Positions 2,959 through 27,386 are shown, numbered from the stretch's first letter. The stretch is DNA of 64,000 nucleotides from an uncultured Dehalococcoidales bacterium (GCA_964453525.1 CAYVOV010000003.1:2099-66098), one strand, 5' to 3'. The notes: generated by a model not told the origin, from the letters alone. Numbers and translations: made by a program.

Positions 2959-3939
2959 TCAACCCAATCCCAACCCCTCGACGGGACTTGCTCCATTTCG
3001 GTGGGCCTGAATAGCCTCCTCTCGCTTTAAGCCTTGAGTATAACGCCGACTCATTGTCAGGTCCTCGTGTCTTAGAAACAACTGAAGCAAGAATGAGTCT
3101 TTGGCACCTCGGAGATATTGTAAGGCACTAGTGTGCCGAAGGCGATGAACTCTCCCTCGCCCGCTCACTCCAGCTCTTTTCTTTAGGGAAACAAATGACG
3201 AAGCTAATCCGCTGACTGTGAACTGCTTGCCTTCTTCAGTTACCCAAAGAGCGTCGCTTTTCGCACGACGCCTCCTTTCCAACAGATAGAGCCAGATAGC
3301 TTTGGCTGTCTTGGAGGAAAACGGACATATGCCTACCTTGTTACCTTTACCAATGACTCGAACCCACTTTTGCTCCAGATTGAGGTCTGCGAGGTTCAAA
3401 TTCACCTGCTCACTCAAGCGCAAACCCGAGTCGATAAAGAGCAGAAGCATAGCTTTATTGCGCAGTCCGATAAACCGCGAACCAGTCTTGATGTCAAGTT
3501 CACAAACGGCAAGAAACCGCTTCAGTTCGTCTTTCTCATAAGGCTGGACGGGTGGAGGCAGTGGAGCCTTAAAATGAATATCCTTGACAGGGCTTTCCTC
3601 AACGAGCCCTTCCTCAATTCCCCAGTTAAATAAGCGCCTTAGCGCTTTGTAGTAAGGCCATGCTGTGGACGGTTTAGACCTAGAAAACCTATGGCTGCCA
3701 TTACCTGCGATATACTCAATGTTTCTTGAACCAACCCAAGATAAAAACTCTCTGATTCGCCTAGCGTCTAAAAAGTTAACGCTATCAGGCCAGCTCTGGG
3801 ATTTTGCGTAGGATAAGAAATGTTTCAGTAACTTATAATAATATTCGTGCGTGCGGAGCGCACGTCCTTCAGCTTGGAGGGAAAAGAGAAATCCCTCCAC
3901 AAAATCTACTAGGCCGATTGCTTTGTCACTCTTTTTCAC
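2959..3939 (-). CDS. tyrosine recombinase/integrase (integrase C, left element)
   Basis: 326 aa. Catalytic signature LRLSE ... HRLRHTSA ... LFLRHEDLTMSRRYT (R..H..R..Y). The start lies 110 bp from the 45-bp tRNA-derived repeat. Confidence 0.85.
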   Translation of the reverse strand: MKKSDKAIGLVDFVEGFLFSLQAEGRALRTHEYYYKLLKHFLSYAKSQSWPDSVNFLDARRIREFLSWVGSRNIEYIAGNGSHRFSRSKPSTAWPYYKALRRLFNWGIEEGLVEESPVKDIHFKAPLPPPVQPYEKDELKRFLAVCELDIKTGSRFIGLRNKAMLLLFIDSGLRLSEQVNLNLADLNLEQKWVRVIGKGNKVGICPFSSKTAKAIWLYLLERRRRAKSDALWVTEEGKQFTVSGLASSFVSLKKRAGVSGRGRVHRLRHTSALQYLRGAKDSFLLQLFLRHEDLTMSRRYTQGLKREEAIQAHRNGASPVEGLGLG

Positions 3940-4044: not shown

Positions 4045-5058
4045 CTTCGTGGTGAGCCGCGGAGGACTCGAACCTCCAACCGGCTGATTAAGAGGCGGGC
4101 ACACACGCTCAAACAGCTTAACAAACTGAGTGTCTCTCAGCTAGCGGAGTTAAGCAGTTTAAGCAAGGCTTACATCTCACAGGTTAAGCATGGAAAACGC
4201 TCGCCATCCCCGAAACTGCTCGAGATACTGGACGAGTTAGAAAGGCCAAAGAAGCCAGACAAAGACTACCTTGAGATATTCCTGCAATCCCGCCAAGCAA
4301 GGGGAGTAAGCCCAAAAACACTCCGGTATTACCAGGAAAGATTGTCTAAATTTGTCGATAGGGTCGAGTATACTCGCGCCACAAGGCAGGACATCGAGGA
4401 ATTTTTGAATTCAATCCCTCCGAACCAGTATGGCCTTGGTAATCGACACGCAACTTACCGTGCACTGAGAGCATTCTATAGGTGGCTGAGTAGCGAGTAT
4501 GAGTTACCCAATCCAGTAGCTGGAGTAGCCGCACCAATACTGGGTAAACCCATACTGCCCAGTCTCACCAGAGATCAGGTCGAGCTACTGATTCAGCATG
4601 CTGAGACTACACGTGACAGAGCCATAGTGGCACTATTTACTGAGAGTGGCTTGAGACTATCTGAGCTGGTCAGTATTACTCCAGATAAAATAGACTGGGA
4701 GTCACACACAGTGCAGATACTGGGTAAAGGCCGGAAAGAAGCTTTAGCGCCTTTCGGTGAGTTAACTGAAAAATATCTCAAGTCTTGGCTTCAGCAACAC
4801 CAGCCCAACGGTAACATCTGGGGACTCAACGAGTGGGGAATCGCCTCTATGCTCAGGAGACTGGAGTCAGCTACTGGAATACGATGTAATGCGCACGCCT
4901 TCAGAAGAACCTTCGCCTGCCTTCTTCGCAAGGCCGGTGTGGACGTAATGACTATCAAAGACTTGGGCCGGTGGGAAAGCCTAGAAATGGTGCAGAGGTA
5001 TACTAGATCGGTGAGATTCCAAGATAGCATGAGATTCTACAAAGCGCCACTTTCTTAA
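4045..5058 (+). CDS. tyrosine recombinase (integrase A) lacking its start codon in the integrated state
   Basis: Frame 1 is open from 4045 to the stop at 5056-5058. It encodes an XRE-like HTH (SVSQLAELSSLSKAYISQVKHGKR), a core-binding region and a catalytic domain (RLSE, HAFRRTFA, LGRWESLEMVQRYT). The first ATG/GTG/TTG is TTG at 4342. It is about two-thirds identical by eye to the integrase at 22840-23745. Confidence 0.8.
   Translation, partial: LRGEPRRTRTSNRLIKRRAHTLKQLNKLSVSQLAELSSLSKAYISQVKHGKRSPSPKLLEILDELERPKKPDKDYLEIFLQSRQARGVSPKTLRYYQERLSKFVDRVEYTRATRQDIEEFLNSIPPNQYGLGNRHATYRALRAFYRWLSSEYELPNPVAGVAAPILGKPILPSLTRDQVELLIQHAETTRDRAIVALFTESGLRLSELVSITPDKIDWESHTVQILGKGRKEALAPFGELTEKYLKSWLQQHQPNGNIWGLNEWGIASMLRRLESATGIRCNAHAFRRTFACLLRKAGVDVMTIKDLGRWESLEMVQRYTRSVRFQDSMRFYKAPLS
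4050..4094. repeat. distal att direct repeat (copy of tRNA-Lys nt 32-76)
   Basis: tggtgagccgcggaggactcgaacctccaaccggctgattaagag is identical 45/45 to 27311-27355. Confidence 0.9.
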
Positions 5059-5238: not shown

Positions 5239-5934
5239 CTATAGATTGTTTGCGATTATAGGTAATTTATCCGCTAGCACTTTCTTATAATGTGGATTGC
5301 GATCACCAGTTGGCTCATGTGGTAGTGCGAGCCATACAAGTATATTATTGCCTACTACTAATTTAAAGGTTCCTTCACAGCAAAACTCTGCTAAGTTTTC
5401 TGGCATAGTGACATCTTGTGGTATAGCATAGGCGTGTCGAAGAACACGAAAGACAGGTTCACCAAGTGATATTAAAATGCAAGGTTGATATTTATTTACT
5501 ACACACTCCAGTTCTTGTTTACCGAATTCGACAAAGTAATAGTAAAGGAAACGCACCGTTTTCCAATCGTTCCTACTGCCATCTAGTTGAAAAAACTTAT
5601 TATGTAAGTAAAATTCAACCAAGGGATTATGAGCTAAATCCCGTGGTTTTTTAATAAAATAACGGTTTACTAAGTTCCAGGCTAGAATGCGCCTCCTGCT
5701 GAAGCCCAACGTTCTACAAATCTTACCGAATATGTATTTACTCAGTTGGCCAGACGTGTTATTTAAGTCCAGTACAGCAGGTATATACCTGGAACTTACT
5801 ATAGTGGGATCCTGACCTAAGAAAAGTACGTCAGCTGTTTTGCTTCCGCGGAACAACTCAGGGCTCCCCCGTTCAACAAGTAAATATTCTTGCATATTAA
5901 TTTCCGGTAGAAAGCTCATATAGTTTCTCCACAA
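5239..5934 (-). CDS. uracil-DNA glycosylase superfamily-like protein
   Basis: VLFLGQDPT (family-1-like GQDP motif), AWNLVNRYF, C-terminal LPHEPTG (HPS-like). An alternative ATG at 5895 lies 1 nt after the upstream stop. Confidence 0.5.
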   Translation of the reverse strand: MWRNYMSFLPEINMQEYLLVERGSPELFRGSKTADVLFLGQDPTIVSSRYIPAVLDLNNTSGQLSKYIFGKICRTLGFSRRRILAWNLVNRYFIKKPRDLAHNPLVEFYLHNKFFQLDGSRNDWKTVRFLYYYFVEFGKQELECVVNKYQPCILISLGEPVFRVLRHAYAIPQDVTMPENLAEFCCEGTFKLVVGNNILVWLALPHEPTGDRNPHYKKVLADKLPIIANNL

Positions 5935-7366
5935 TCCATATCATACCTTCGGTATCCCGACCGCAATACTTTTCCAGATCAATCATCACCTTTGCTCTGT
6001 CTTCCTCTGGTATTTCACCATAGTTGGCTGTAAGAAAGGATAAGCTAGCTACCTGGCCATCGGAAATATTCAAACCCTCGTATCCTTTGCCTGTTATTGC
6101 TGGAAGTACAGCCTTGAGTGATGCACTACCTTTCTGAGCGGGGTGATAATAATCAAATTTACTAAAAGGCTTTAGTAGGTCAACTAGCCGGTTGCATATC
6201 CGTTCAATCCAATCGTTATATTCAGGGAAAGCAGCTGCCATTTCCCGCAAACACCCCTCTTCAAATCCTTTGTTGTAGGCAATGATGCTCCCAGAATCCC
6301 CCAGTACCTTTCTAATCTCAGCAAGTAGACCAGGCCGTGGATCACCAGTATCATTTGTCAGGTACGAGTAGTGCACTGGCTCTGACTTTTCATCCCGGAC
6401 AACGTGTAAAGAATACTGGAATGGAACGTCTTGGTAAGGTTTTACTCCGTCAAACAGAGGTATTGCCGGCCCGATGGTCTCGAAATCGAGGTAATAAAGA
6501 GGGTATTCGAGTGAAGAGAGGAACTCTTTGATTCTTTCCTTGTCTACATGGGGCTCACTGCTTACAACAGCTGCCTTTTGAATAAGCTGCTTGCCGTTTA
6601 ATTTGTAGCTAACCGGTATTTCGCTAATGGTTGCTACACCATCGTTATACATTTCATACGCTTTCTTTCCACCCCAATATAGCGAGAAAATACTGTGTTC
6701 AGGTAGGTTTCCCCAGCAGTCTGTTAAAGGACACTCGTATGGATCTCGGCAGTACGGCCCGATTATCATTTCGGGACATACATCTTGGTTAATAATTTTT
6801 ATAATGCTATCTATTTTATCCTGTATATCTATGCTTGATTCATTTACTTTATCGGTAATGTCGTGGATATTAAAAAGGCCTTCTGGGTCTAACTCTCCTT
6901 CCCTGACGTACTGGTTATTGATTAGAGCCAAGTAACAATTCCTGATACTCAATCCGTACTGTACACAGCAATGGCGTTGAAAAGCCACGTCGTCGATATG
7001 GACTTTCTTGATATTGGTTGAACTCTTAACTTCGCATATGTTCCACTCATCTTCGCCGGCAGGAAAGAGGATATCCACCCTACAATAAAGCCCATCCGAC
7101 AAGATACCTGCTTCGAACAAAGGTTTTCTTTTACTCAGCATTTCCTTTGTCTTCTCTATGTTCTTTATAAAATCATCTTGAGGTATATAAATACCTCCAG
7201 GAAACAGTCTGTTTGCCAGATACCCGACTTCATGCCCTTGGTCGAATGTATACTGGGTAACTGCATCTGTTTCTGGTATTCGCTCCGGTTCATGGAACTG
7301 CATCCAGACGTACCTAGGGCACTGGAGACCGTTTAGATATTTCGATTTTGATAACAATAGAGACAT
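5897..7366 (-). CDS. DUF2779-like protein: N-terminal PD-(D/E)xK/Cas4-like nuclease with Cys cluster plus C-terminal DnaQ-like exonuclease
   Basis: LSKSKYLNGLQCPRYVW start. RVDILF..(14)..CEVKSS. Cys cluster CPEMIIGPYCRDPYECPLTDC. YYLDFETIGPAIP...PYQDVPFQYSLH. Confidence 0.7.
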   Translation of the reverse strand: MSLLLSKSKYLNGLQCPRYVWMQFHEPERIPETDAVTQYTFDQGHEVGYLANRLFPGGIYIPQDDFIKNIEKTKEMLSKRKPLFEAGILSDGLYCRVDILFPAGEDEWNICEVKSSTNIKKVHIDDVAFQRHCCVQYGLSIRNCYLALINNQYVREGELDPEGLFNIHDITDKVNESSIDIQDKIDSIIKIINQDVCPEMIIGPYCRDPYECPLTDCWGNLPEHSIFSLYWGGKKAYEMYNDGVATISEIPVSYKLNGKQLIQKAAVVSSEPHVDKERIKEFLSSLEYPLYYLDFETIGPAIPLFDGVKPYQDVPFQYSLHVVRDEKSEPVHYSYLTNDTGDPRPGLLAEIRKVLGDSGSIIAYNKGFEEGCLREMAAAFPEYNDWIERICNRLVDLLKPFSKFDYYHPAQKGSASLKAVLPAITGKGYEGLNISDGQVASLSFLTANYGEIPEEDRAKVMIDLEKYCGRDTEGMIWIVEKLYELSTGN

Positions 7367-7385
7367 TTTTCGCTTAGGAAAGAGG

Positions 7386-9581
7386 CTATTTAGTTAGTTT
7401 CCCTTTCCTTAACTTTCTACGTTTCTTTGTAGCTTTTGTCTTCTTGGTCTTGGGCATAAGGCTTGGATCCTCAAGAACAGCAGCTATTGTCCCAAACCAA
7501 TGAATATGCAGATAGTGAGCTCCACGTGTAGTCGCCAGATACAGTAATTTGTTATGAAGATCGGAACCAGTAAAATTGTTCTTACGGGCATTAGCTAATA
7601 TTACAGCATCATACTCTAGACCTTTAGAAAGATATATAGGGGAAACTGCCGTCTTGGTTCGTTCATAACCTGGCTTATCAAGCAGCATAGCGTCATCTAT
7701 GCCTTCCTTGCGAAGCTTCACTGCTAGTTGAGAAGCTTCACGTGATGTCTTACATAGTACAGCAATAGACTGAATTTCTTTGGTTTTCAAAGACCTGATA
7801 TCTTCTGCTATAGCTTTTACCATTTCTTTAGCGGATTTAGAACGTATCAGGAGAGGTTTCTCCCCATGGCGTTCGTAAGCAATGGCTTTAGGCAACCTGG
7901 GCGCCGTTAGCTTCAAAATTCGGTTTGCATATTTTGTTATCTCAGATGTTGTGCGATAGCTGATGCGGATATCTGTTCTGTGAGGACGCTCTTTAGAGAA
8001 TAATCCTTTTACTTCGCTCCAGTCCTTCATACCTCGATGGGGTAATAGACTCTGTCCAATATCACCAAGTATTGTAAATGATTTGTTAGCGGAATAAACG
8101 TACAAAAGCAATAGTTCAAGGGGTGAAACATCTTGAGCTTCATCTACAACTACGTGTTCAAATGAAGGATTACTCCGTCCCTTTCTGCTTCTTTCGTTAA
8201 TGCCGTTCAATAGATAATTCAAATAGCAAATTGCAGCTAGGTCTTCTAGTTTTAAACGTTTGGTCTTCCCTGATAATGCTTTGACGAAATAATCAGTTTC
8301 TTCTTCTGTAATGACACCTTTTGACATATTAAGCAGATAATCTCGATTTGATAAAAGTTTTAGGTAGGCATTTCTAAAGTCGAGTTCAGGCCAAAATTCA
8401 TCAAATTGACTTGTAATGGCTTTACGCCGTGAGTCATCTAACTTTGTTAATAATCCTCTTCTGAATTCTCGCTCAATATTCGATATAGCCATTCTACGTT
8501 GTTCATTAAGAGGTTGATTGCCCAATTCCTTGATTATCCTCCTGACTCTAGACCTACTAATGGTTACTACTCCGCTGACAATACTTGTAGAGTTGTTTAT
8601 GAATTCATTTCGCAGAGTCTGGACATACCTATCAAGAATATGCGCCATTTGGAGTGAAACCTTTTGTTTTGCTACCTTCACTTCCATGCCTAAGTCTTTT
8701 CTGGATCCCCTCAGCAATTTCTCAAGCAACTTGTCCTCAAATTGTCTTATGCGGCGAGGTAAAGTGCTGCGAAGCCACTCAGGAATAGTCATTTGCCTTA
8801 CTCTTTCAACGCCTAGACCTGGAAGCAAGTTAGAAACATATTTGAGAAATGCTCTACTGGGGCCAAAGAAGACAACCCTATTTGGTGAAATATCTAGGTC
8901 AAGTTCATTGAACGGTGATAGCAAATAAGCTATTCTATGAATACCTACTTCGCTTTTGCCGCTGCCTGCTACGCCTTGAATGATTAGAACTCGATATGGT
9001 GTTGATGCTATGAGTTCGTACTGCTCAGGCTGGATTGTAGCAACGATCTTCTTTAATTCAGTACCCTTTGACTCAGACAACTGCCGAGAAATTCGTGTTT
9101 GTTTAACAGGTGTTACCTTCTCTCCAGGTGGTAGTAAGGGGACTTCTACAACGTCTAGCAATGTAGATTGTTCAATCAATAATTCGCGTTTTAGATTAAC
9201 AACTACTTTAATTTTTCCAGATGGGCAGGTATACTCCCCGGCTAAAGGATTATAAAAAAGCTTACCTATAGGTGCCTGCCAATTAAAAACATAGTCCAGC
9301 GGAATGTGATACTCACCCAAATAGTAAGATTCAATATTGTCCTGAGTTGCCCCCTTTACAAAATCTATACGACCGAAATATGGACTTTGCCGGGCTTCTG
9401 ATAGATTCCGGATGTTCTCCTCTTTTTTCTGGCGCATGTCACGAGCAGCTTCACCAAACACAGGTGCTTCTTCTTTAGACATGCCTAGAAAGCGTTTATC
9501 TTCTTCTATAACCTCGTCAATACGTGATATACACCGCTCTAGGTTATTCTCTTCTTCAGTATATATATTTTCCTCTGTCAT
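7386..9581 (-). CDS. UvrD-like SF1 helicase with HelD-like N-terminal domain
   Basis: Walker A GVAGSGKSE, motif II VVVDEAQD, N-terminal SPYFGRIDF and NWQAPIGKLFY. The preferred start is ATG 9581, preceded by aggagga. The track ORF extends to 9728. Confidence 0.8.
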   Translation of the reverse strand: MTEENIYTEEENNLERCISRIDEVIEEDKRFLGMSKEEAPVFGEAARDMRQKKEENIRNLSEARQSPYFGRIDFVKGATQDNIESYYLGEYHIPLDYVFNWQAPIGKLFYNPLAGEYTCPSGKIKVVVNLKRELLIEQSTLLDVVEVPLLPPGEKVTPVKQTRISRQLSESKGTELKKIVATIQPEQYELIASTPYRVLIIQGVAGSGKSEVGIHRIAYLLSPFNELDLDISPNRVVFFGPSRAFLKYVSNLLPGLGVERVRQMTIPEWLRSTLPRRIRQFEDKLLEKLLRGSRKDLGMEVKVAKQKVSLQMAHILDRYVQTLRNEFINNSTSIVSGVVTISRSRVRRIIKELGNQPLNEQRRMAISNIEREFRRGLLTKLDDSRRKAITSQFDEFWPELDFRNAYLKLLSNRDYLLNMSKGVITEEETDYFVKALSGKTKRLKLEDLAAICYLNYLLNGINERSRKGRSNPSFEHVVVDEAQDVSPLELLLLYVYSANKSFTILGDIGQSLLPHRGMKDWSEVKGLFSKERPHRTDIRISYRTTSEITKYANRILKLTAPRLPKAIAYERHGEKPLLIRSKSAKEMVKAIAEDIRSLKTKEIQSIAVLCKTSREASQLAVKLRKEGIDDAMLLDKPGYERTKTAVSPIYLSKGLEYDAVILANARKNNFTGSDLHNKLLYLATTRGAHYLHIHWFGTIAAVLEDPSLMPKTKKTKATKKRRKLRKGKLTK

Positions 9582-9660
9582 AAATCCTTCCTCCTTTGTA
9601 CCACCCTTTAAACAGCATATGATATAAATAAGTCGAATTATCCTGGATAAAGTAAGTTTC

Positions 9661-10470
9661 TTACCATCCTCCGACTTCTTGCCACATTTCTTCGGCTGCT
9701 TCATCAATCCAATCTGGGAACATTTCATCTAAGTAGTCCAATATATCAGCACCAATCTGTTCCTGAAGATCAGTTGCCGATTTAGCAGCCCTTAAGGCAT
9801 CTGGTCCACAATAGAGTCGCTGATTATTAGTGCCTTTGCACCAATTTTCAATTTCATCCAAGACTGTTTGGAGAGACCTGCATGACCATGCTGCTAAATT
9901 TTGAACCGCGCGACAATCTATCTCGCTTAGGCATTTAGCAGCTCCTCTAGCTGTTGCTTCGTATATTAATGGCAATGGGAGCCTTTGAGGCTCGATCACT
10001 GTGATTCCCCAGAGTGCTGCGTAATGACGGCAATCATCACGTATGTTATGACCAGATAGAAGGAATCTATTCATCGGAATCTTTGCGTAGAATTGACTAC
10101 TACCCTGGAGAAAATCAAGACTTTTACTATTGAAAATTAGAAGTTCATTTTTTTCTAATTTGGTTGTTAGGTGTTTCAGTTCCCAGTGGGTCACGCAAGT
10201 AACGTCTCTTGTACCGCCATCTACCTCATGTCTAAGTCCCGAAGCACTACGCTGCTCTGCGAGGGAAGTAGAGCCTGCTTTCTCGCTAAGACGGATGCCG
10301 CGTCGCTCACAAAGGTCGTAAAAGAGGTCCTCGAAATTACGACCTCTCTCATATCCATGACCAGATATTCCCCCAACCTCTACAATTGCATAAACTCTAA
10401 CTATTAGGTCAAGGATATTCTCTGGAAATAGGTTGGAATAGTCCTTTACAATTGGCTTCTTCCACCACAT
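9661..10470 (-). CDS. predicted PD-(D/E)xK fold nuclease, family unknown
   Basis: 269 aa. FEDLFYDLCERRG ... HEVDGG-(13)-WELKH fits the E...D...ExK restriction-endonuclease-like core. Confidence 0.45.
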   Translation of the reverse strand: MWWKKPIVKDYSNLFPENILDLIVRVYAIVEVGGISGHGYERGRNFEDLFYDLCERRGIRLSEKAGSTSLAEQRSASGLRHEVDGGTRDVTCVTHWELKHLTTKLEKNELLIFNSKSLDFLQGSSQFYAKIPMNRFLLSGHNIRDDCRHYAALWGITVIEPQRLPLPLIYEATARGAAKCLSEIDCRAVQNLAAWSCRSLQTVLDEIENWCKGTNNQRLYCGPDALRAAKSATDLQEQIGADILDYLDEMFPDWIDEAAEEMWQEVGGW

Positions 10471-10481
10471 CCCTGAACCCT

Positions 10482-11792
10482 CTAAATAATGCGCTCGTCA
10501 GTAGCAATTTCCTCGGTTTCTTCATCTTCGGAAGTCGTTGGAAGCAAACGCTCAAGCTTTGGTAGAACGAACACTTCGTCTAATCGTGGTGCTTTATTAG
10601 TGTTACCAAGCTCTAATAGCCTATTTAGTATGCGCAAAAACTCCCTTGGATTAGGTCTTGTAGCTTCCCATGCTATTTTTAGAGACGCTTCCGTAAAGGG
10701 CGAAATACTATCTGTACGAGTGGGAAGCGCTACGGTTGAGTCATTGAGCATTCGTTCTGCAAGAAGATGCGCCGAACTAAACTCCTCGAGACCTTTAAGC
10801 ACAACTACAACAGGCTCATTAAGAGGATTGTCATAGTCTAGAGAAGGAAGGTCTTCGTGTTGCCACGCGTTTCTAAGGCGGTAATATGCACTGGGATGTA
10901 GCTGGAACACAAAGGATGCCCGGGAGGAAAATGGTTCAGCCTCAATTAACGCATCTCTAATGAATTTCACATTTCGCTCTATTTTGGAGGTTCCAGACAT
11001 TGATGTAAAATCCTCTACTTGGTCAATAAAGAAAGTAAAATGCTCCATTCCTGCTAATTCAGAGAACACAACAAGAATCTGCAGATATTTGAGTCCATTA
11101 CGATCATGATGCCAAGTGCCAACATCAGAAGCAAGGAATCTTTCTAATGCCTCTGTATCTGGTGTAGCAAGATGGTACATGAAATCTTCAAGCAAATTCC
11201 TGATGTCGAGAGTTACTGCCAGCTTCCGGAACCTATCCCTAATGGCTTCGACGATGGCAGTATCTTCACTACCTTCGACTGCCTTCCCAGCACTCACGAG
11301 CTTTGCTGCAGCTCGTTCTCTCAGTTTTGTGTGCGTACTTATGCCAGCATTATCCCGCGTCCGGAGAATAAATCGTGCCAAATTGAAAGCAGCGGCATCA
11401 ATACTCAAAATACCACCATAAGCCTTAGCAACAAATGTTACATATCCAGCAAGCACAGGATTAGCATTAGCGTCCTCATCTGAAATACCCAACGATGTTA
11501 AAGTCGATTTTCCGAAGTCTTGATTTATCTTTTTTGCTTCTTCGGCCATAAGCGTAGATTTTCCAAACCCGCGGGCCGACGGATCACCACTGGACACAGA
11601 CCAAACAGCACCAATAAGAGGCTGCCCATTCTCAAGTGGTGCTAATATGAACTTACGTAAAAATTCATTTCGCTGAAGCCCAAACATTTCGGGCACATAT
11701 ATGATTTCCGTGTCCTCTCCATAAGTGGCTTGACTAGGGAAAGGATTTTTCTTTAAACCGTATTGGATTTCATAATAAGATTTAATTGCCAT
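10482..11792 (-). CDS. AAA/ORC-ExeA-like P-loop ATPase with deviant Walker A
   Basis: 436 aa. N-terminal YGLKKNPF, SARGFGKST (Walker A-like), FTFFIDQVEDF (Walker B-like). Confidence 0.5.
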   Translation of the reverse strand: MAIKSYYEIQYGLKKNPFPSQATYGEDTEIIYVPEMFGLQRNEFLRKFILAPLENGQPLIGAVWSVSSGDPSARGFGKSTLMAEEAKKINQDFGKSTLTSLGISDEDANANPVLAGYVTFVAKAYGGILSIDAAAFNLARFILRTRDNAGISTHTKLRERAAAKLVSAGKAVEGSEDTAIVEAIRDRFRKLAVTLDIRNLLEDFMYHLATPDTEALERFLASDVGTWHHDRNGLKYLQILVVFSELAGMEHFTFFIDQVEDFTSMSGTSKIERNVKFIRDALIEAEPFSSRASFVFQLHPSAYYRLRNAWQHEDLPSLDYDNPLNEPVVVVLKGLEEFSSAHLLAERMLNDSTVALPTRTDSISPFTEASLKIAWEATRPNPREFLRILNRLLELGNTNKAPRLDEVFVLPKLERLLPTTSEDEETEEIATDERII

Positions 11793-11794
11793 TT

Positions 11795-13009
11795 TTAACC
11801 TCCATCAGAAATTGATAGTTTTATTAATCCAATTCGATGACCTCTTACTAGAACATAGCTTTCTCCTTGCGGTGGTGGGGTAAACGGCAACTCGGTATAA
11901 ATAGTCACCCCTGATTCTTCACGGTGTTCAATTATCCGTTCTAAACAAAGTGAGAATATTAAAGGTTGTATCCTCAAGTCCGTGCAAACGAGTGCCCGAA
12001 GAGGATAGATATCGATATATGTTTGTAATGAGCCGGACAATTTTTTATATGCAGATATTAATGACATCGTAAAATCATTTGAAACGTAAGACTGTCCATG
12101 ATGGGTAACTCCGGAAACAGAAGCCTCAGCGTTAAAAGACGGATCAGGCATGAAATCGCACGTCGAAAATATAACTCGTCCTGTAAAATCAGGATGAGAA
12201 GATGTTATAGCCACGCTGTAGAAATCTTGCGAACAACTAAATATATGCTGAAAAGTAACTGTATCAAAAAATAAGCCTTCTGATTTCAGGATGGCAGGCA
12301 CTACAATATTATCCTCTACTGTATCTACAATTTTCTTTACGTCAATATTTCGCATAGATGAAACACGATTCAGATACTCAACTTGTTCATCTACCTTTTC
12401 GTTGAATATGACAATTTTCTCCGCAGGGAAATCGATGGTTTTAAGCCTTGTAGTGCAGCTTTCGATTATTCTATTAGCCAACAGATCAGGATCAATAGGG
12501 AATTTCAGGCTTTGCCCAAGCTGTTTAATACTTGTTATATCAGGAATATACATTGGCGACTTGAGTAAACGTATAGTGAACGCTCTAAAGTAGGGATGAT
12601 TGTTCATCCATAAAAGTAATATAGAATCAAACGCTTTTCCACGACTATCCTTATATAAGCGTGCTATCTCCATACCTTTCTCTGTGACTTTGCAGGGCGT
12701 TTCTTTTAATCTTTCTACCTCGGACCTTTTACGAGGTAAAGGTCCCACTGTTATTAATCTAAGTTTATTTAGGTCTGTAAGAGCATCACGTGCTACTGTC
12801 CACATAACTTCACGTGATGGAGGAGCATGTCGTTTCGATGAGCTGTGAAGAGAACGGCGTACTTCATCAAATGTACAAGTGGATTTGGATAAGGAAATAA
12901 AACGGAGAGAATCAAGAAGCTGATCTATCCGTATCCTGGGGATAGAGTCTTTAATAATATCTTTATCCTGCATACAAATATTATATAATAATATGGGAGC
13001 GTTTGTCAA
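11795..13009 (-). CDS. hypothetical protein with N-terminal winged-helix-like segments
   Basis: 404-aa ORF (alternative start at 12973, MQDKDII). LNKLRLITVGPLPRKRSEVERLKETPCKVTEKGMEIA resembles a wHTH. First gene of the six-gene operon. Confidence 0.4.
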   Translation of the reverse strand: MTNAPILLYNICMQDKDIIKDSIPRIRIDQLLDSLRFISLSKSTCTFDEVRRSLHSSSKRHAPPSREVMWTVARDALTDLNKLRLITVGPLPRKRSEVERLKETPCKVTEKGMEIARLYKDSRGKAFDSILLLWMNNHPYFRAFTIRLLKSPMYIPDITSIKQLGQSLKFPIDPDLLANRIIESCTTRLKTIDFPAEKIVIFNEKVDEQVEYLNRVSSMRNIDVKKIVDTVEDNIVVPAILKSEGLFFDTVTFQHIFSCSQDFYSVAITSSHPDFTGRVIFSTCDFMPDPSFNAEASVSGVTHHGQSYVSNDFTMSLISAYKKLSGSLQTYIDIYPLRALVCTDLRIQPLIFSLCLERIIEHREESGVTIYTELPFTPPPQGESYVLVRGHRIGLIKLSISDGG

Positions 13010-13052
13010 TACCGTTTCATTAATTTTTGTGAATTTCTATTAATCTGGAAGG

Positions 13053-13114: not shown

Positions 13115-13336
13115 ATGCCAGTTCTAGAAGATTATATAAGCGTTAATGAAGCTGCTGAGTTTCTCAAAGTTCATCCGGGCACTGTCAAGAGGCTTTGTCG
13201 TGAACGCAGGTTATCAGCCCACAAAGTCCATAATGGATGGCTAATCCACATTAACGATGTGCAGTCCTTTGCTAAGGAATATAACGGCCGGAGGGGAAGG
13301 CCAAGCAACATGGATATTAATAAAAGGGTAATTTGA
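13115..13336 (+). CDS. excisionase-family/MerR-like HTH DNA-binding protein
   Basis: ISVNEAAEFLKVHPGTVKRLCRERRLSAHKVHNGWLI matches the HTH_17/excisionase pattern. Its stop overlaps the helicase start (TGATG). Confidence 0.7.
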   Translation: MPVLEDYISVNEAAEFLKVHPGTVKRLCRERRLSAHKVHNGWLIHINDVQSFAKEYNGRRGRPSNMDINKRVI

Positions 13337-16300
13337 TGGCCAAACTTGAAGAACTGGTAGAAGGAGCCCTAGTCGAGGGAATAATTGCTGATAGCCCCGC
13401 TACTGTAATACATACGAAGTGGTTTGGTGAACAGGCTATAGAGCTAACGTACAAAAATGAACAAACGGGGACTGTCAGTAACCGTTTGTTATATCGATCA
13501 GATGAGGATGCACTCCGTCTCATAGAGACAACTTCTGCTTTGGTGTTTGATGGTGACGGCGAGACATTCCGATTAGCATCTGAAGCAAACCGCATTCGTC
13601 TCGCATACTTATTCGATCCAAGACTAGCTGTTCACGTTTCGCAAGTAGACCCATTGCCGCATCAAATAGCCGCCGTATACGAGGAAATGTTAATTAGACA
13701 ACCACTACGGTATCTCTTAGCTGACGATCCAGGTGCCGGTAAAACAATTATGGCTGGCCTATTTATAAAGGAGCTAATTCTTAGAGGAGACCTTGAAAGG
13801 TGCTTAGTCGTATGTCCTGCAAATCTCGCAGAGCAATGGCAAGATGAACTTAGCGAAAAATTCAAATTACACTTCGAGATTGTAGGGCGCGAACAAATAG
13901 AGAGTAGCCTCACCATTAATCCCTTTCTTGAAAAACCTTTCGTTATCAGCCGTATCGACCTTCTTAAACCGAGGAGAGATAAAAACGGTGAACTCGATGA
14001 ATCTAACCTTGATAGGTTAAAACAAGTGGAGTGGGACTTACTAGTTGTCGATGAAGCTCACAAAATGAGCGCCTCATTTGTTGGAGGAGATGTTAAATTA
14101 ACCGCGAGGTATAGGCTTGGTCAAATTCTGTGCGATCCACAGCATAGCCGTCATATCGTATTTCTCACTGCGACGCCTCATCATGGTAAAGAGGAAGATT
14201 TCCAGCTCTTCTTAGCTCTGCTAGACAAAGACCGCTTTGAAGGGCGCTTCAGAACAGGAGTTCATCGCGTAGATACCTCCGACATTATGCGACGGATGCT
14301 AAAGGAAGAACTTGTTGATTTCGAGGGGAAACCTTTATTTCCAGAGAGACGGGCGTATACAGTGAACTATGACCTGAGTCCATTAGAAGCACGGTTGTAT
14401 GCTGATGTAACTGAGTATGTACGTACTGAGATGAATAGAGCTGACGAGTTGGCAGAAGTAGGTTCACATCGTCGGACAGTGATTGGCTTTGCACTTACGG
14501 TTCTACAGAGACGCTTAGCCTCCTCACCGGAAGCTATATACCAATCCTTACGACGGCGTCGGGAGCGGCTGGAAAAAAGGATTGAGGAGGAAAGACATAA
14601 GAAGCAAGCAGCGGAGCTCGACCTTACTTCCGGACTTAGAGCAATTGACGAAGAGGAGATGGATGACCTTCCAGACAGAGAGACGGAAGAACTTGAAGAC
14701 CAAGTAGTTGATCTGGCATCAAATGCCCGTACTATCGCTGAACTTGAACTTGAGATTATCCGTTTAAAGGAACTAGAGAAGCTAGCTAAGGAGGTCAGAC
14801 AAAGTGACACCGACCGTAAGTGGGAGGAGCTTCGTGATCTGCTCTTGAATCGTGCTGAGATGTTTGACCAGAAGGGACGAAGAAGAAAGCTCATTATATT
14901 CTCTGAGCATCGGGACACCCTTAGGTATTTGGCTAGCAAAGTACGGAATCTGTTGGGTGATCCTACTGCAATAATTGAGATACATGGTGGGATGGGACGT
15001 GTAGAGAGAAGGAAAGCACAAAATACTTTTATTAACGACCCTACTGCTGAAATATTAATTGCCACTGATGCAGCAGGCGAGGGTATAAACCTACAACGCG
15101 CCCATCTTATGGTTAATTATGACCTTCCCTGGAATCCAAATCGTATCGAACAGAGATTTGGACGTATCCATCGTCTAGGACAGCGTGAAGTCTGTCATCT
15201 ATGGAATCTTGTTGCATATCAGACGCGTGAAGGTGCAGTCTTCCGTCGCCTTTTTGAGAAACTGGAGTCACAACGTCAAGCATTAAAGGATAAGGTATTT
15301 GATGTTCTAGGGAGAGTCTTTGACGAAATCCCACTGCGTAATCTTCTTATGGATGCAATTCGCTATGGAGACCAACCTGAAGTAAGAGCAAGGTTGGAAG
15401 AGCGAATCGATGAACTTATGAGTCCTGAACACTATAGAGAGCTTATTGAGCGATTTGCTTTGGCAACTGACACGATTGATACTACTCGTTTACAATCTCT
15501 GATGGAAGATATGGAGAGAGCTGAAGCGCTACGGCTCCAGCCCCACTTTATTGCATCCTTCTTTACAGATGCGTTTCAGCGACTAGGTGGCTCAATTAGA
15601 GAGCGGGAATCTCAGCGTTATGAAATCAGGCGGGTTCCACAAGAGATAATCAGGAGGGCCCGTCAAATCAGACGGGGGATCCCGCTGGTACACCGCTATG
15701 AACGAATAGTGTTTGAGAAAGAACGTATAAACGTAGATGAAAAACCCCCGGCTGAATTTGTAGCTCCAGGACATCCTCTGCTGGATGCCACAATTGACCT
15801 TACTTTGGAACGGCATAGTCAGCTTCTGCGTCGAGGCGCTCTTCTTGTTGATCCTAGGGAAGACGGGCCTAATACTTCAAGAGCCTTGTTATTTATTCAA
15901 CATGAGATTCACGATGGCAGAGTTGACAAGCAAGGACGAAACCGTACTGCCTCCAGGAAGCTGCATTTTGTAGAGATTTCTCAAAATGGGGAATCTCAGG
16001 ATGCTGGTGCTGCTCCCTATCTTGATTACCGATCATTAAATGATGATGAGGGAAAAGCGGTTAACCAACTTCTTCAACAGGCCTGGCTTCAAAAAGACAT
16101 TGAAGAGCAAGCTAAGGCTTATGCTATTGAATTCCTTGTGCCAAGACACTTTGAAGAAGTAAAAGCCTATCGGGAGTCGTTGGTATTGAAGACCATGGCA
16201 GCGGTGAAAGAACGCTTAACTAAGGAAATCCAATACTGGGATAAAAGGGCGGAGGAGTTGAAAGCTCAAGAACTAGCCGGTAAGAAGCCACGAATAAACT

Positions 16301-16881
16301 CTGCATTAGCACGCCGTCGTGCTGATGACCTCACTGACCGACTCCAGGCACGCATGAAAGAGCTCGAATTAGAAAGGCAACTGTCACCCCGGCCACCAGT
16401 GGTTGTCGGTGGTGCTCTTGTAGTTCCAGAGAAAGTGTTAGCACACATGCTAAATCGTCCTGTGCCAGACCGTGGGGGCGTAGAAAAAGATGTGGTAGAA
16501 GAGCTTGCTATGAAGGCGGTAGAAGAAGCCGAGAGAAAGACTGGGCGAATTCCTACTCGTATGCCGGTCAATAACCCTGGTTACGATATCGAATCAAGAG
16601 ATCCTGAGACTGGGCATCTACATTTTATTGAGGTAAAAGGACGCCAGGCTGATGCCGACATCGTACATATTACGAAGAACGAATGGCTTGTCGCCTTGAA
16701 CAAGAGGGGCATGTTTATTCTAGCTATTGGACGTGTTCGTGATAACCAAGTGGAGTCATTGCATTATATCCGTGACCCGATGGCCCGCGCTGTAGCCGGT
16801 GATCTGACTTTTGGTGTAACGGGTATTGATCTGAATATTAATGAACTACTGAAGTTGGAGACTGTGGAGGCTATACGATGA
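13333..16881 (+). CDS. SNF2-family helicase with C-terminal DUF3883 (PD-(D/E)xK-like) domain; Hma-type helicase
   Basis: DDPGAGKT, VVDEAHKM, LTATPHHG, ATDAAGEGINLQ, QRFGRIHRLGQ. C-terminal GYDIESRD...FIEVKGR...ITKNEW. Confidence 0.85.
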   Translation: MMAKLEELVEGALVEGIIADSPATVIHTKWFGEQAIELTYKNEQTGTVSNRLLYRSDEDALRLIETTSALVFDGDGETFRLASEANRIRLAYLFDPRLAVHVSQVDPLPHQIAAVYEEMLIRQPLRYLLADDPGAGKTIMAGLFIKELILRGDLERCLVVCPANLAEQWQDELSEKFKLHFEIVGREQIESSLTINPFLEKPFVISRIDLLKPRRDKNGELDESNLDRLKQVEWDLLVVDEAHKMSASFVGGDVKLTARYRLGQILCDPQHSRHIVFLTATPHHGKEEDFQLFLALLDKDRFEGRFRTGVHRVDTSDIMRRMLKEELVDFEGKPLFPERRAYTVNYDLSPLEARLYADVTEYVRTEMNRADELAEVGSHRRTVIGFALTVLQRRLASSPEAIYQSLRRRRERLEKRIEEERHKKQAAELDLTSGLRAIDEEEMDDLPDRETEELEDQVVDLASNARTIAELELEIIRLKELEKLAKEVRQSDTDRKWEELRDLLLNRAEMFDQKGRRRKLIIFSEHRDTLRYLASKVRNLLGDPTAIIEIHGGMGRVERRKAQNTFINDPTAEILIATDAAGEGINLQRAHLMVNYDLPWNPNRIEQRFGRIHRLGQREVCHLWNLVAYQTREGAVFRRLFEKLESQRQALKDKVFDVLGRVFDEIPLRNLLMDAIRYGDQPEVRARLEERIDELMSPEHYRELIERFALATDTIDTTRLQSLMEDMERAEALRLQPHFIASFFTDAFQRLGGSIRERESQRYEIRRVPQEIIRRARQIRRGIPLVHRYERIVFEKERINVDEKPPAEFVAPGHPLLDATIDLTLERHSQLLRRGALLVDPREDGPNTSRALLFIQHEIHDGRVDKQGRNRTASRKLHFVEISQNGESQDAGAAPYLDYRSLNDDEGKAVNQLLQQAWLQKDIEEQAKAYAIEFLVPRHFEEVKAYRESLVLKTMAAVKERLTKEIQYWDKRAEELKAQELAGKKPRINSALARRRADDLTDRLQARMKELELERQLSPRPPVVVGGALVVPEKVLAHMLNRPVPDRGGVEKDVVEELAMKAVEEAERKTGRIPTRMPVNNPGYDIESRDPETGHLHFIEVKGRQADADIVHITKNEWLVALNKRGMFILAIGRVRDNQVESLHYIRDPMARAVAGDLTFGVTGIDLNINELLKLETVEAIR

Positions 16882-19610
16882 CCTACCGCAAGAAGTTAAT
16901 AGAGGTAGCCATGCCTCTTGATGCTATTAACAACGCATCTGCTCACGAAAAAGCAGTGCGGCGTGGTCATCCATCCGCGCTCCATTTGTGGTGGGCGCGA
17001 AGACCTCTCGCTGCTTGTAGAGCAATACTCTTTGCCTCATTGGTTGATGATCCCAGTAATGACTTGCCCGAAAATGAGGCAAATAAGGAGCGAGAACGCT
17101 TGTTCCGTATACTTGAAGACCTTGTGAGATGGGAAAACATTAATAACGAAACGGTAATCGGTATGGCGAGGGAAGAGATAATTAGGAGTACGAGAGATAA
17201 TCCTCCTTCACTCATAGACCCCTTTTGTGGTGGAGGTGCTATACCGCTGGAAGCTCAACGCCTGGGATTAGAAGCCTATGCCTCTGACTTGAATCCAGTG
17301 GCTGTTCTGATTACCAAGGCACTTATTGAAATACCAGCTAAGTTTGTCGGAAAACCTCCGGTGAATCCGGATTCAAAGAAAGGTACCGGTAGTACTGCTG
17401 GCTGGAGAGGTGCTTCAGGTTTGGCAGCTGACGTGCGTTTCTACGGCCAATGGATGCACAATGAGGCGTGGAAGCGTATTGGTCATCTGTATCCCAAAGG
17501 ACCAAATGGGGAGACAGTCATCACTTGGCTATGGACAAGAACAGTAAAATGCCCCAATCCTGCATGTGGTACTCAAATGCCTTTAGTGCGGTCCTTCTGG
17601 CTATCCACGCAGAAAGGCAAAAGGGCTTGGGTAAAACCTATCTTGGATTTAGATAACAAGACAGTGCGGTTCGAAACGAGTATAAGTGACAGTGATGCAC
17701 CACAAGGAACAGTCAACCGTTTGGGAGCTCGCTGTATCCTATGTGGTACGGCAGTATCCTTTGACTACATTAGAGCAGAGGGTAAAGCAGGATGCATAAA
17801 TAGGCGGTTAATGGCAATGGTTGGTGAGAACCAACACGGACGTATCTATTTGTCTCCAGACAATAATCACGAAAGTATCGCGGTTTCTGCTGATCCTGAC
17901 TGGATTCCCGATACAGAGTTACCAGAACAAGCGCTCGGATTTCGTGTTCAATTATATGGTATTTCGAGGCATGCAGAACTTTTCACAAGCCGTCAGCTTG
18001 TATTCCTCTCTGTGCTATGTGATCTAGTAGAGGAGGCCCATCTTCAGGTTATTGAACACTCTGGGAGAGATGAAGAATATGCTAATGCGGTTACCACTTA
18101 CTTAGGTCTAACAGCAAGTAAAATAGTTGATTCATGTAATGCATTCTGTCGCTGGCGGTCCGATCATGCTACAGCAACCAACCTGTTCGCTCGTCCCACA
18201 TTGTCCATGCTATGGGACTTTGCCGAGGTAAACCCATTTCAATTTGTCAACTACGCAGATCTTGCATCTAAGAGTGCAGCCGTATTGGAAACACTCAGCT
18301 TAGGGAAGTTGCATAGTGTACCAGCTGGAGCAGTCAGTCAACTGGACGCCACACAAGCGCTTCCAGTTTCTATACCAGCTCTCATTGCCACTGACCCTCC
18401 ATATTACGATAATATCGGTTATGCAGACCTCTCTGATTTCTTTTATATATGGCTCCGTCGCATGTTGAAGAGCATTTATCCTGAATTGTTTTCAACCTTG
18501 CTAACACCAAAGAATCAAGAGCTTATAGCATCACCATACCGATTTGACGGAAGCAAACAGAAAGCAAAGGAGCATTTCGAAAATGGACTCGAGAAAAACT
18601 TTGTGCTTATGCGAACAAAGGCTGCCTCGGAGTATCCAGTTACACTCTATTATGCTTTCAAGCAAGCTGAGAATGACAATGGTAGCGACGCAAATAGTAA
18701 ATCAGAAGTTCCTACTCTTGCACAGGCATCCACAGGCTGGGAGACCATGCTTCAGGGCCTGTTAAGTGCTGGCTTTCAGATTACGGCTACTTGGCCAATG
18801 AGGACAGAGCTAGGTACGAGGATGCGTGGGATTTCGTCTAATGCCCTTGCTTCATCAGTCGTACTTGCTTTTAGACTCAAGCAGAAAGATGCGCCAATTG
18901 CTACACGAAGGGAATTTTTGGCTGCCTTGCGAAAGGATTTACCTCAAGAATTGAGAGTACTCATGAATGGTCGGGTAGCCCCGGTTGATCTAGCGCAGGC
19001 ATCCATTGGCCCAGGAATGGCCATCTTTTCTCGCTACAGCAAGGTACTAGAGGCGAATGGTTCAGCCATGACGGTGAGAACCGCTCTTCAGGAGATTAAT
19101 TATTTCCTAGAAGACTACCTAGCACAGCAGGAGGGAGACCTAGACGTAGAGAGCCAGTTCTGCGTTGTTTGGTTTCAACAATATGGCTCTAGAGAAGGCC
19201 CCTTTGGAGAGGCGGATGTGCTGTCAAGAGCTAAGGATGTCAGTGTTGATGGTCTGGCTCGTCTTGGTCTGGTCGATGCTGAAAGAGGTAAAGTACATCT
19301 AACCCTGCGAGAGAGTTATGAAGATGATTGGGATCCCAGAAATCAGTCGCGGATCACTGCTTGGGAAGCTTGCCAACGCCTAGTGTGGAGCCTGAATGAG
19401 AACGGGGAGCAGGAAACAGGTCGCTTGGCAAGACGATTGGGTGGTGTAGCTGAGCAAGCAAGACAACTGGCATATCGTCTCTACGGTATTGCTGACCGTA
19501 AGGGATGGGCTGAAGAGGCTTCCGGCTATAACGCTTTAGTATCTTCTTGGTCTGAAATACAAAAGGCAGCCGCTGCTGCCGCTGAGGAAGCTCAAGGGAG
19601 GATGATGTGA
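16878..19610 (+). CDS. DUF1156-family DNA methyltransferase (N6A/N4C type) with Zn ribbon
   Basis: N-terminal EKAVRRGHPSALHLWWARRPLAACRA. DPFCGGGAIPLEA (SAM site). CPNPACG...CILCG. IATDPPYYD motif IV. ATGA overlap with the helicase stop. Confidence 0.85.
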   Translation: MTYRKKLIEVAMPLDAINNASAHEKAVRRGHPSALHLWWARRPLAACRAILFASLVDDPSNDLPENEANKERERLFRILEDLVRWENINNETVIGMAREEIIRSTRDNPPSLIDPFCGGGAIPLEAQRLGLEAYASDLNPVAVLITKALIEIPAKFVGKPPVNPDSKKGTGSTAGWRGASGLAADVRFYGQWMHNEAWKRIGHLYPKGPNGETVITWLWTRTVKCPNPACGTQMPLVRSFWLSTQKGKRAWVKPILDLDNKTVRFETSISDSDAPQGTVNRLGARCILCGTAVSFDYIRAEGKAGCINRRLMAMVGENQHGRIYLSPDNNHESIAVSADPDWIPDTELPEQALGFRVQLYGISRHAELFTSRQLVFLSVLCDLVEEAHLQVIEHSGRDEEYANAVTTYLGLTASKIVDSCNAFCRWRSDHATATNLFARPTLSMLWDFAEVNPFQFVNYADLASKSAAVLETLSLGKLHSVPAGAVSQLDATQALPVSIPALIATDPPYYDNIGYADLSDFFYIWLRRMLKSIYPELFSTLLTPKNQELIASPYRFDGSKQKAKEHFENGLEKNFVLMRTKAASEYPVTLYYAFKQAENDNGSDANSKSEVPTLAQASTGWETMLQGLLSAGFQITATWPMRTELGTRMRGISSNALASSVVLAFRLKQKDAPIATRREFLAALRKDLPQELRVLMNGRVAPVDLAQASIGPGMAIFSRYSKVLEANGSAMTVRTALQEINYFLEDYLAQQEGDLDVESQFCVVWFQQYGSREGPFGEADVLSRAKDVSVDGLARLGLVDAERGKVHLTLRESYEDDWDPRNQSRITAWEACQRLVWSLNENGEQETGRLARRLGGVAEQARQLAYRLYGIADRKGWAEEASGYNALVSSWSEIQKAAAAAAEEAQGRMM

Positions 19611-19611
19611 C

Positions 19612-27270: not shown

Positions 27271-27380
27271 AAGGAGAACCGTTAAAAATGAGGAAAATTA
27301 GCCTCAAAAATGGTGAGCCGCGGAGGACTCGAACCTCCAACCGGCTGATTAAGAGTCAGCTGCTCTGCCAGTTGAGCTAG
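27271..27380 (+). other. detached 5' module of integrase A (RBS, ATG, 8 codons) reading antisense through tRNA-Lys
   Basis: AGGAG at 27272-27276, ATG at 27288. MRKISLKN then enters the 45-bp repeat in frame. In the integrated state the frame stops at TAG 27378-27380 (30 codons). Confidence 0.7.
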
Positions 27381-27386
27381 CGGCCC
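27311..27386 (-). tRNA. tRNA-Lys: tRNA-Lys (anticodon CUU), CCA encoded
   Basis: Manual cloverleaf: acceptor GGGCCGC/GCGGCTC, D arm GCTC-AACTGGCA-GAGC, anticodon arm GCTGA-CTCTTAA-TCAGC, T arm GGAGG-TTCGAGT-CCTCC, ACCA tail. 76 nt. Confidence 0.9.

Follow-up and report, generated by a model that had tools for sequence, protein, structure and literature searches.

We analyzed a run of six co-directional genes (g1 to g6) on the minus strand of a 64,000-nucleotide stretch of DNA from an uncultured Dehalococcoidales bacterium (GCA_964453525.1, CAYVOV010000003.1:2099-66098), which we call the window. We propose that this locus is a mosaic of separable modules: an ATPase-nuclease cassette (g1-g3) with a putative role in defence, a helicase gene (g4), and a glycosylase-nuclease pair (g5-g6), the latter two being add-ons. 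The structure of the locus comes from comparing it to its relatives, and the role in defence is suggested by genomic context. We put the probability of this reading at about 0.6. A preliminary description, made from the window's sequence, had viewed the six genes as one operon that fits no named defence system and that may recognise and destroy base-modified or uracil-containing invader DNA.

The six open reading frames were verified, with independent gene calls from an identical public contig (L010 among our loci). The genes and the control region of the core are:

12980-13017, minus strand: conserved promoter and operator of the core, with direct repeats AAACGGTA and AAACGCTCCC that are 13 nt apart and overlap the -35 element (TTGACA), then an 18-nt spacer and a -10 element (TATAAT)

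11795-12973, minus strand: g1, first core gene, a multi-winged-helix protein of 392 amino acids (from the ATG)

10482-11792, minus strand: g2, second core gene, a P-loop ATPase of 436 amino acids

9661-10470, minus strand: g3, third core gene, a protein of 269 amino acids with a PD-(D/E)xK motif

7386-9581, minus strand: g4, accessory gene, a HelD-like superfamily 1 (SF1) helicase or translocase of 731 amino acids

5897-7366, minus strand: g5, partner of g6, a fusion of a Cas4-like PD-(D/E)xK domain and DUF2779, 489 amino acids

5239-5919, minus strand: g6, a protein of 226 amino acids (alternatively 5239-5895, 218 amino acids) with a uracil-DNA glycosylase (UDG) superfamily fold and the motifs GQDPT and PHEPTG

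To find relatives, we searched 185,579 genomes (one for each species) and JGI metagenomes with an alignment of g2, and we added contigs that encode relatives. This gave 61 loci with a relative of g2, from at least six phyla. All 42 of the loci with enough DNA have g1, g2, and g3 together (by tblastn), and g1 is always adjacent to g2. (The remaining loci are truncated by contig ends or are degenerate copies.) The trio is found in Myxococcota, Planctomycetota, Chloroflexota (including the cultivated Dehalococcoides mccartyi VS), Acidobacteriota, Deltaproteobacteria, and Alphaproteobacteria. Compared with the window's proteins, those of the other loci are 60-70% identical for g2, 50-60% for g3, and 40-50% for g1. 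By a pattern scan, the g1-g3 cassette is present in only 9 of the 185,579 species genomes. A divergent cassette in Azospirillum brasilense p1 (L066, NZ_CP032346.1, ~630,300-636,500), with a g2 that is 37% identical, has the permuted order g2-g1-g3.

The genes after g3 come and go. Where there is at least 1.5 kb of DNA after g3, all of g4-g6 are missing in 17 of 21 loci. g4 recurs just once and is limited to one subclade: L011 has g1-g4, with the same 79-nt gap and a g4 that is 51% identical, and there is no g5-g6 in the ~470 nt between g4 and the contig end. In L063, the products of g1-g3 are 88-91% identical to the window's and the genes are followed by g5-g6, with g4 cleanly absent (2.27 kb). 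In L012, whose g1-g3 proteins are 82-90% identical, the g3-g4 spacer and the first ~55 nt of g4 are retained (10830-11089), which indicates that the helicase was lost recently. The g5-g6 pair recurs twice, with the core in L063 and without it in L069. Relatives of g6 also occur 20 nt after HmaC (L059/L060) or stand alone (L061/L062 and L067/L068). So, the six-gene synteny does not recur, and the single six-gene system of the preliminary description does not hold up. That description had named, among the findings that would count against it, that the six genes are not syntenic in other genomes and instead occur as housekeeping repair genes; we found the first part of this and not the second. 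As the conserved unit is g1-g3, the glycosylase cannot define that unit's mechanism. The idea of an attack on base-modified or uracil-containing DNA is a reasonable lead for the UDG-fold protein and the nucleases, given the defence glycosylases Brig1 and Brig2 (discussed below), but it does not extend to the conserved unit, which has no glycosylase.

Within this genome, the six genes are laid out as an operon. The intergenic distances from g1 to g5 are 2, 11, 79, and 19 nt, and g6 either overlaps g5 by 23 nt or, with its start at 5895, follows after a 1-nt gap, exactly as had been described. The promoter upstream of g1 (13009-12980, minus strand) matches the sigma-70 consensus, with TTGACA, an 18-nt spacer, and TATAAT (a score of 12/12). 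Because the -10 element ends 6 nt before the ATG of g1, the mRNA of g1 is probably leaderless, and the upstream TTG that had been taken as the start of a 404-amino-acid g1 is really part of the -35 hexamer. The lengths of g2, g3, and g5 agree with the preliminary description, which gave 732 amino acids for g4 and 231 for g6. We found no terminator-like sites on the minus strand within the six-gene run, and g4, 79 nt after g3, is preceded by a strong ribosome-binding site. With one strong promoter, no internal terminator-like site, and a good ribosome-binding site for g4, a single transcription unit is plausible, and the six genes are probably transcribed together in this genome.

This layout is what one would expect if all six genes formed one obligate six-component system acting on base-modified or uracil-containing invader DNA, and g4 does appear to be ancestral to its subclade (given L011 and the remnant in L012). 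But most loci with downstream DNA lack g4-g6, a close relative (L063) precisely lacks g4, L011 has g4 and no g5-g6 up to its contig end, and both the g5-g6 pair and g6 itself are found away from the core. We consider an obligate six-component system to be very unlikely.

The control region also sets g1-g3 apart. The operator consensus is AAACGnTc-N5-AAACGnTCCC (in aligned form, AAACGnTc-TTGAC-AAACGcTCCCa, followed by a -10-like element). Of 33 non-redundant loci, 31 have this motif ahead of g1, even those in which g1 is just ~40% identical; the window contains a single copy. At the variable position, the two repeats change in concert (C/C, T/T, or A/A). Among close relatives, homology stops abruptly ~45 nt upstream of the ATG of g1, and the retained segment is the promoter with its repeats. 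The conserved operator and the sharp boundary of homology mark g1-g3 as a self-contained module. The motif suggests that the operator serves a winged-helix protein, most simply g1 itself.

The domain assignments of the preliminary description all survived: two by family models (g4 and g5), two by structure prediction (g1 and g6), and two by motifs (g2 and g3). For g2, the P-loop with a deviant Walker A motif stands, but membership in the AAA class is not established. None of g1, g2, and g3 has a match in PADLOC v2.0.0 (including its HEC and PDC candidates), NCBIfam 20.0, Pfam, PHROGs, or PDB sequences.

The AlphaFold2 model of g1 (predicted local distance difference test score, or pLDDT, of 86.7; predicted template modelling score, or pTM, of 0.85) consists of a MarR-like winged helix at the N-terminus, a central helical part, and, at the C-terminus, a region with beta structure and a winged-helix-like part. 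The N-terminal winged helix has local Foldseek probabilities of 0.95-0.99. The whole-chain matches (RPC62, MukF, and JetA) are weak. We predict that g1 is probably a DNA-binding and adaptor subunit, and an autoregulator as well. Beyond the N-terminal winged helix, the residues C94, D145, C173, H243, C272, H291, H292, C330, C343, E361, and E371 are invariant or nearly so. This conservation of polar, cysteine, and histidine residues suggests a metal site or else an active or interaction surface.

In g2, the Walker A motif is RGFGKST (residues 74-80), which is missing the first glycine of GxxxxGK[ST], and the Walker B motif is DQVED (residues 257-261), about 175 amino acids after Walker A. Among 1.84 billion proteins, 175 representatives (clustered at 50% identity) match the g2 profile. 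We examined 44 full-length remote relatives: three match Pfam's BrxC_BrxD (PF10923; best E-value of 9e-5) and three match AAA_16, and these matches are weak. Aligning the g2 profile to one BrxC and to HmaC with hhalign gave nothing. BrxD has been described as an ORC/Cdc6-type AAA+ ATPase and the partner of the BrxHI helicase (PMC12839542). Possibly, g2 is distantly related to the BrxC/BrxD (ORC/Cdc6-type) ATPases, but we take this as a lead only.

In g3, the residues E47, D84, and E97-L-K99 are invariant in 33 sequences and fit the E...D...(D/E)xK pattern. A Pfam scan of all 33 members of the family at E ≤ 5 gave only noise. On the strength of the invariant motif, g3 is probably the nuclease effector.

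In our proposed mechanism for the core, g1 would bind both AAACGnTCC repeats over the -35 element, which would hold expression in check, and would double as a DNA-binding or adaptor subunit. g2 would be an ATP-driven switch or loader, and g3 would cut either invader DNA or, as an abortive response, host DNA. The cassette would be an anti-invader system that often serves as a second layer beside modification-based defences.

In line with the preliminary description, the six genes do not fit any defence system modelled in PADLOC v2.0.0, though the cassette may have been named more recently. In that run, g1, g2, g3, and g6 had no match to any model at E ≤ 0.1, while g4 matched generic UvrD-type models, including GajB, and g5 matched just Cas4. 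The six genes do not make up any of the PADLOC systems that we considered (Gabija, Hachiman, Shango, Mokosh, DISARM, BREX, Dpd, Druantia, Wadjet, Lamassu, HEC, and PDC), and there is no GajA, HamA, or similar partner at the locus. We did not find a description of the trio in the literature on DUF2779, Hma-embedded systems, HelD-like defence, or conflict systems that combine ORC-Cdc6 with restriction endonucleases.

The surroundings of the core suggest a role in defence. The setting in the window is a mobile island that adjoins an Hma system, so the defence-island context that had been described for it is correct, and L011 also has Hma as the neighbour. In the other loci, the neighbours are: MkoA and MkoB of Mokosh and a DUF499/DUF1156 (Hma-like) system in L001; type I restriction-modification in L002; BrxC in L005; a type IIG restriction-modification-like gene in L012; PglW in L025; a type III methyltransferase in L026; the DpdE and DruE helicases in L028; AbiEii and RmrA in L004; BrxHI in L036; a BrxL-like gene in L008; and a CHAT-TPR protein in L022. 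In L015, L033, and L009, the core is among ordinary genes, which argues that it works alone. It is a documented pattern that extra defence genes are embedded in or beside Hma (10.1101/2024.01.29.577857), and auxiliary nucleases have been described around BREX and DUF499 systems (PMC12839542).

These associations raise the alternative that g1-g3 is not autonomous and is instead an auxiliary or backup of the neighbouring Hma, BREX, or restriction-modification system. For example, it might sense anti-restriction proteins or contribute a nuclease. Most of the defence neighbours carry a methyltransferase or are of the BREX or Hma type, and the weak resemblance of remote g2 relatives to BrxC/BrxD fits as well. 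Besides the auxiliary nucleases just mentioned, there is the precedent of PARIS, which is discussed in the same two papers. On the other hand, the systems beside the core belong to many unrelated types (Mokosh, AbiE, and DpdE/DruE among them), only ordinary genes surround the core in several loci, and the cassette has its own conserved promoter with a sharp boundary of homology. We view an auxiliary role as unlikely.

The core might also serve the mobile element that carries it, by addiction or stabilisation, by excluding competitors, or in a step of recombination or transposition. Besides the island in the window, which has integrases, the core is in an integrated element of D. mccartyi VS (L064, CP001827.1, 223,008-244,186) that encodes an integrase, ArdC (with an ArdC-N domain), a Dcm methylase, a UvrD-PD-(D/E)xK helicase-nuclease, and Vsr. 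Sharp module boundaries, an own promoter, and high conservation together with a patchy spread across phyla would suit such a role too. Yet 2.9 million viral contigs, 50,697 phage genomes, PHROGs, and BFVD gave nothing related to the core, and a search of 72,556 plasmid records gave a sole match, to a replicon of 1.8 Mb. Also, we saw no terminal inverted repeats flanking the cassette, and the carrier elements vary from locus to locus. The g1 model contains only winged-helix and helical domains, lacks an RNase H/DDE fold, and does not resemble transposases, so we rejected a Tn7/Mu-like transposition module. Overall, service to the carrier element seems quite improbable.

Several points do weigh against a mosaic built on a defence cassette. 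The association with defence is guilt by association from ~20 loci, without a formal background rate or an enrichment test, and the D. mccartyi VS element, with its integrase and ArdC, also fits a function that serves the mobile element. The ATPase class of g2 depends on the weak matches in 3 of its 44 remote relatives, and its conservation (60-70% identity across phyla) is unusually high for a defence gene. Finally, the PD-(D/E)xK call for g3 is based on the motif, and profile searches gave no match.

Within the mosaic that we favor, we can offer a more specific proposal, which we hold tentatively and at somewhat less than even odds. g1-g3 would be an undescribed and autonomous anti-phage or anti-plasmid system, made up of three families without representation in the databases, that spreads between phyla as a promoter-to-stop module and docks beside modification-based defences. 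The helicase and the glycosylase-nuclease add-ons would widen its range to phages with modified DNA in some lineages.

In its general design, the core resembles Gabija (GajA/GajB), PARIS (AriA/AriB), HEC-01 to HEC-04, and McrBC, which couple an NTPase to a separate or fused nuclease and are found in defence islands. The HEC systems were also discovered in Hma loci. As in Gabija, where GajB follows, a UvrD-family helicase (g4) follows the core in one subclade. However, g1-g3 match none of the PADLOC models for these systems, and g2 shows no sign of being of the ABC/OLD type; the weak matches of its remote relatives are to BrxC/BrxD and AAA_16. Also, g3 has a PD-(D/E)xK motif rather than TOPRIM, and there is an obligatory third subunit with multiple winged helices.

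There is some resemblance to the ATPases of BREX as well (BrxD/BrxC, PF10923, and the BrxD-BrxHI pair). BrxD, at ~430 amino acids, is a stand-alone ATPase, remote g2 relatives have weak matches to this family, and in some loci the core adjoins PglW, BrxC, or BrxHI; at times a helicase is linked to it. But g2 itself does not match PF10923 or PADLOC's BrxD at E ≤ 0.1, its constant companions g1 and g3 are not BREX components, and it also occurs without any BREX genes. As for Wadjet and MukBEF, the points in common are the architecture of g1 (winged helix, helical part, winged-helix-like region) and the presence of the kleisins JetA and MukF among its weak whole-chain Foldseek matches, but these matches are not significant (E of 0.03-0.09 and template modelling, or TM, scores of 0.19-0.24). 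g2 does not have a coiled-coil SMC architecture and there is no other SMC-type ATPase, so we rejected a Wadjet-like system.

The first add-on, g4, would be a HelD-like translocase that became attached to the core in one subclade only. It scores 313.6 bits against NCBIfam's HelD_BACSU (NF041464), which is below the equivalog cut-off of 419, so it is HelD-like but not an equivalog. It aligns over the N-terminal and 1A domains. It also has the UvrD domains of Pfam (UvrD_C, E = 1.5e-12), with intact GSGKS (Walker A) and DEAQD motifs, and in PADLOC it matches only generic UvrD-type models (GajB at 3e-12 and RTasHel at 9e-15). The HelD/HelR ATPases recycle RNA polymerase, whereas g4 is on a mobile island after a nuclease cassette. 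Close relatives differ in whether they carry it, so g4 is not a housekeeping HelD of the host. The divergent cassette of A. brasilense is followed by a 925-amino-acid UvrD-type helicase that is only a distant relative of g4.

The other add-on would be a translationally coupled pair, g5-g6. g5 belongs to DUF2779 (PF11074; E = 4.8e-43, 146.9 bits, well above the gathering cut-off of 23.3). The N-terminal half is Cas4-like, and the PADLOC Cas4 match, at 6e-6, is the sole one for this protein. The candidate catalytic motifs are D98, E112-x-K114, and D294-x-E296. The DUF2779 family has been described as an RNase H-like (DnaQ-like) exonuclease with a Cas4-like PD-(D/E)xK domain (PMC3985635, PMC13621843), and g5 has this architecture.

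The assignment of g6 comes from structure prediction. Against Pfam's UDG (PF03167), g6 scores 14.1 bits (E = 0.05), which is under the gathering cut-off of 24.3, and a profile search of PDB sequences did not find any UDG. The AlphaFold2 model has a pLDDT of 77, with low values in the loops of the active site. In a Foldseek search of the PDB, all of the top 50 matches are members of the UDG superfamily (UDG, UdgX, SMUG1, and MUG/TDG), and the best is the family-4 UDG of S. tokodaii (E = 3.8e-6, probability 1.0), with TM scores of 0.45-0.55. The GQDPT and PHEPTG motifs are nearly invariant across relatives of g6. An hhalign comparison to E. coli Ung aligned just the 12-residue GQDP motif. The family numbers only 26 clusters among 5.8 billion, and the contexts of all of them are variable. 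Based on the predicted fold, g6 is a candidate defence DNA glycosylase. It probably removes an unusual base from invader DNA, and g5, as a Cas4/DnaQ-type dual nuclease, probably degrades the damaged DNA.

We consider the pair to be analogous to two defence glycosylases with a UDG fold whose activities were shown experimentally: Brig1, which acts on alpha-glucosyl-hydroxymethylcytosine (PMC11078745), and Brig2, which acts on modified thymidines (bioRxiv 10.1101/2025.10.29.685425). Like them, g6 is a small UDG-fold protein that is found in defence islands and mobile elements, near BREX-type systems, and the S. tokodaii UDG is the best structural neighbour of both Brig1 and g6. Unlike Brig1, g6 has the UNG-like motifs GQDP and H-x-P-x-G, and it has no sequence similarity to Brig1 (using the sequence from that paper's supplement, hhalign gave a probability of 0.2% and BLASTP gave E = 4.7). 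Also, g6 often has a DUF2779 dual nuclease as its translationally coupled partner; the parts of the Brig1 (PMC11078745) and Brig2 (10.1101/2025.10.29.685425) papers that were available to us do not describe any such hard-wired pairing of a glycosylase with a dedicated nuclease.

Relatives of g6 that are away from the core have varied neighbours. L059/L060 (1-12552) contains an Hma-type system with embedded genes for a Trypsin_2 protein and a 215-amino-acid protein, then the g6 relative, and then an RVT_1 reverse transcriptase gene. In L061/L062, the g6 relative is divergent from a run of genes that encode an HTH_17 protein, a 748-amino-acid protein, a radical SAM enzyme, and a 374-amino-acid fusion of UDG and SocA_Panacea domains; this run may be another glycosylase-containing system. 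In L067/L068, the g6 relative adjoins a 587-amino-acid NT5C (deoxyribonucleotidase-domain) protein and an MBL-fold RNase-like protein, and there is no DUF2779 partner.

As for side observations on the core, degenerate copies are found in Pirellulales (L055 and L009; in L055, g2 is cut off after residue 131 and there is no g3) and in an alphaproteobacterial metagenome-assembled genome (L007), which has frameshifts in g1-g3. A conserved 172-amino-acid open reading frame follows g3 in L064 and L065.

In the window, all six genes are within a genomic island of 23.3 kb that is delimited by perfect 45-nt direct repeats (4050-4094 and 27311-27355) and that contains two tyrosine-recombinase genes, the six-gene run, and Hma. 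Its features are:

4050-4094, plus strand: distal attachment (att) repeat, a 45-nt copy of the 3' end of tRNA-Lys at the far end of the island, which matches 27311-27355 perfectly

27311-27386, minus strand: tRNA-Lys(CTT), the site of integration (by ARAGORN and the repeat)

4342-5058 and 22840-23745: integrase genes of the island

13115-22413, plus strand: an HTH_17 gene and HmaA-HmaB-HmaC, the divergent neighbour, which is context and not part of the six genes

The G+C content is 40-47% over most of the island, versus ~50% in the right part of the window (from ~48 kb on). The Hma system at 13336-22413 is complete, with the SNF2 helicase HmaA, the DUF1156 methylase HmaB, and the DUF499 ATPase HmaC (each with a PADLOC E-value of 0; the Pfam domains are SNF2/NOV_C, DUF1156, and DUF499). 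The tRNA island and the divergent Hma-type system of the preliminary description are therefore both confirmed. Hma membership is confined to that operon: the six genes are not Hma components. An additional integrase (2959-3939) is just beyond the distal repeat, which suggests that islands are stacked in tandem at this tRNA. Another open reading frame of the island (24863-25585, 240 amino acids) has an N-terminal helix-turn-helix that matches PADLOC's RmrA models (E = 3e-8), over ~80 residues only.

The island bears on a last alternative, that the genes do housekeeping DNA repair (as HelD, UDG, and repair nucleases) and are clustered by chance. g4 does resemble HelD, the UDG fold of g6 comes with UNG-like GQDP and histidine motifs, and DUF2779 is quasi-essential in a minimal Mycoplasma (PMC13621843). 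But all six genes are inside the att-flanked island, which is lower in G+C than the remainder of the window; g6 belongs to a small family in variable contexts; g4 falls under the HelD cut-off; and g1-g3 are in just a handful of species genomes. With the location in an island and the patchy distribution, we rejected a housekeeping repair cluster, which would be an extremely improbable explanation.

If g1-g3 does work in defence, then three uncharacterised protein families and a clearly defined regulatory site would join the prokaryotic immune repertoire. The cassette is present in cultivated organisms in which it could be tested: D. mccartyi VS, Pyxidicoccus caerfyrddinensis, and A. brasilense. 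More broadly, this locus illustrates how defence operons are assembled from interchangeable modules, and it is a caution that a compact operon seen in one genome need not be one system. The g5-g6 pair suggests that a defence glycosylase with a UDG fold can be firmly tied to a nuclease of its own, and the UDG-like gene directly after HmaC suggests that glycosylases are accessories of Hma and BREX-related systems.

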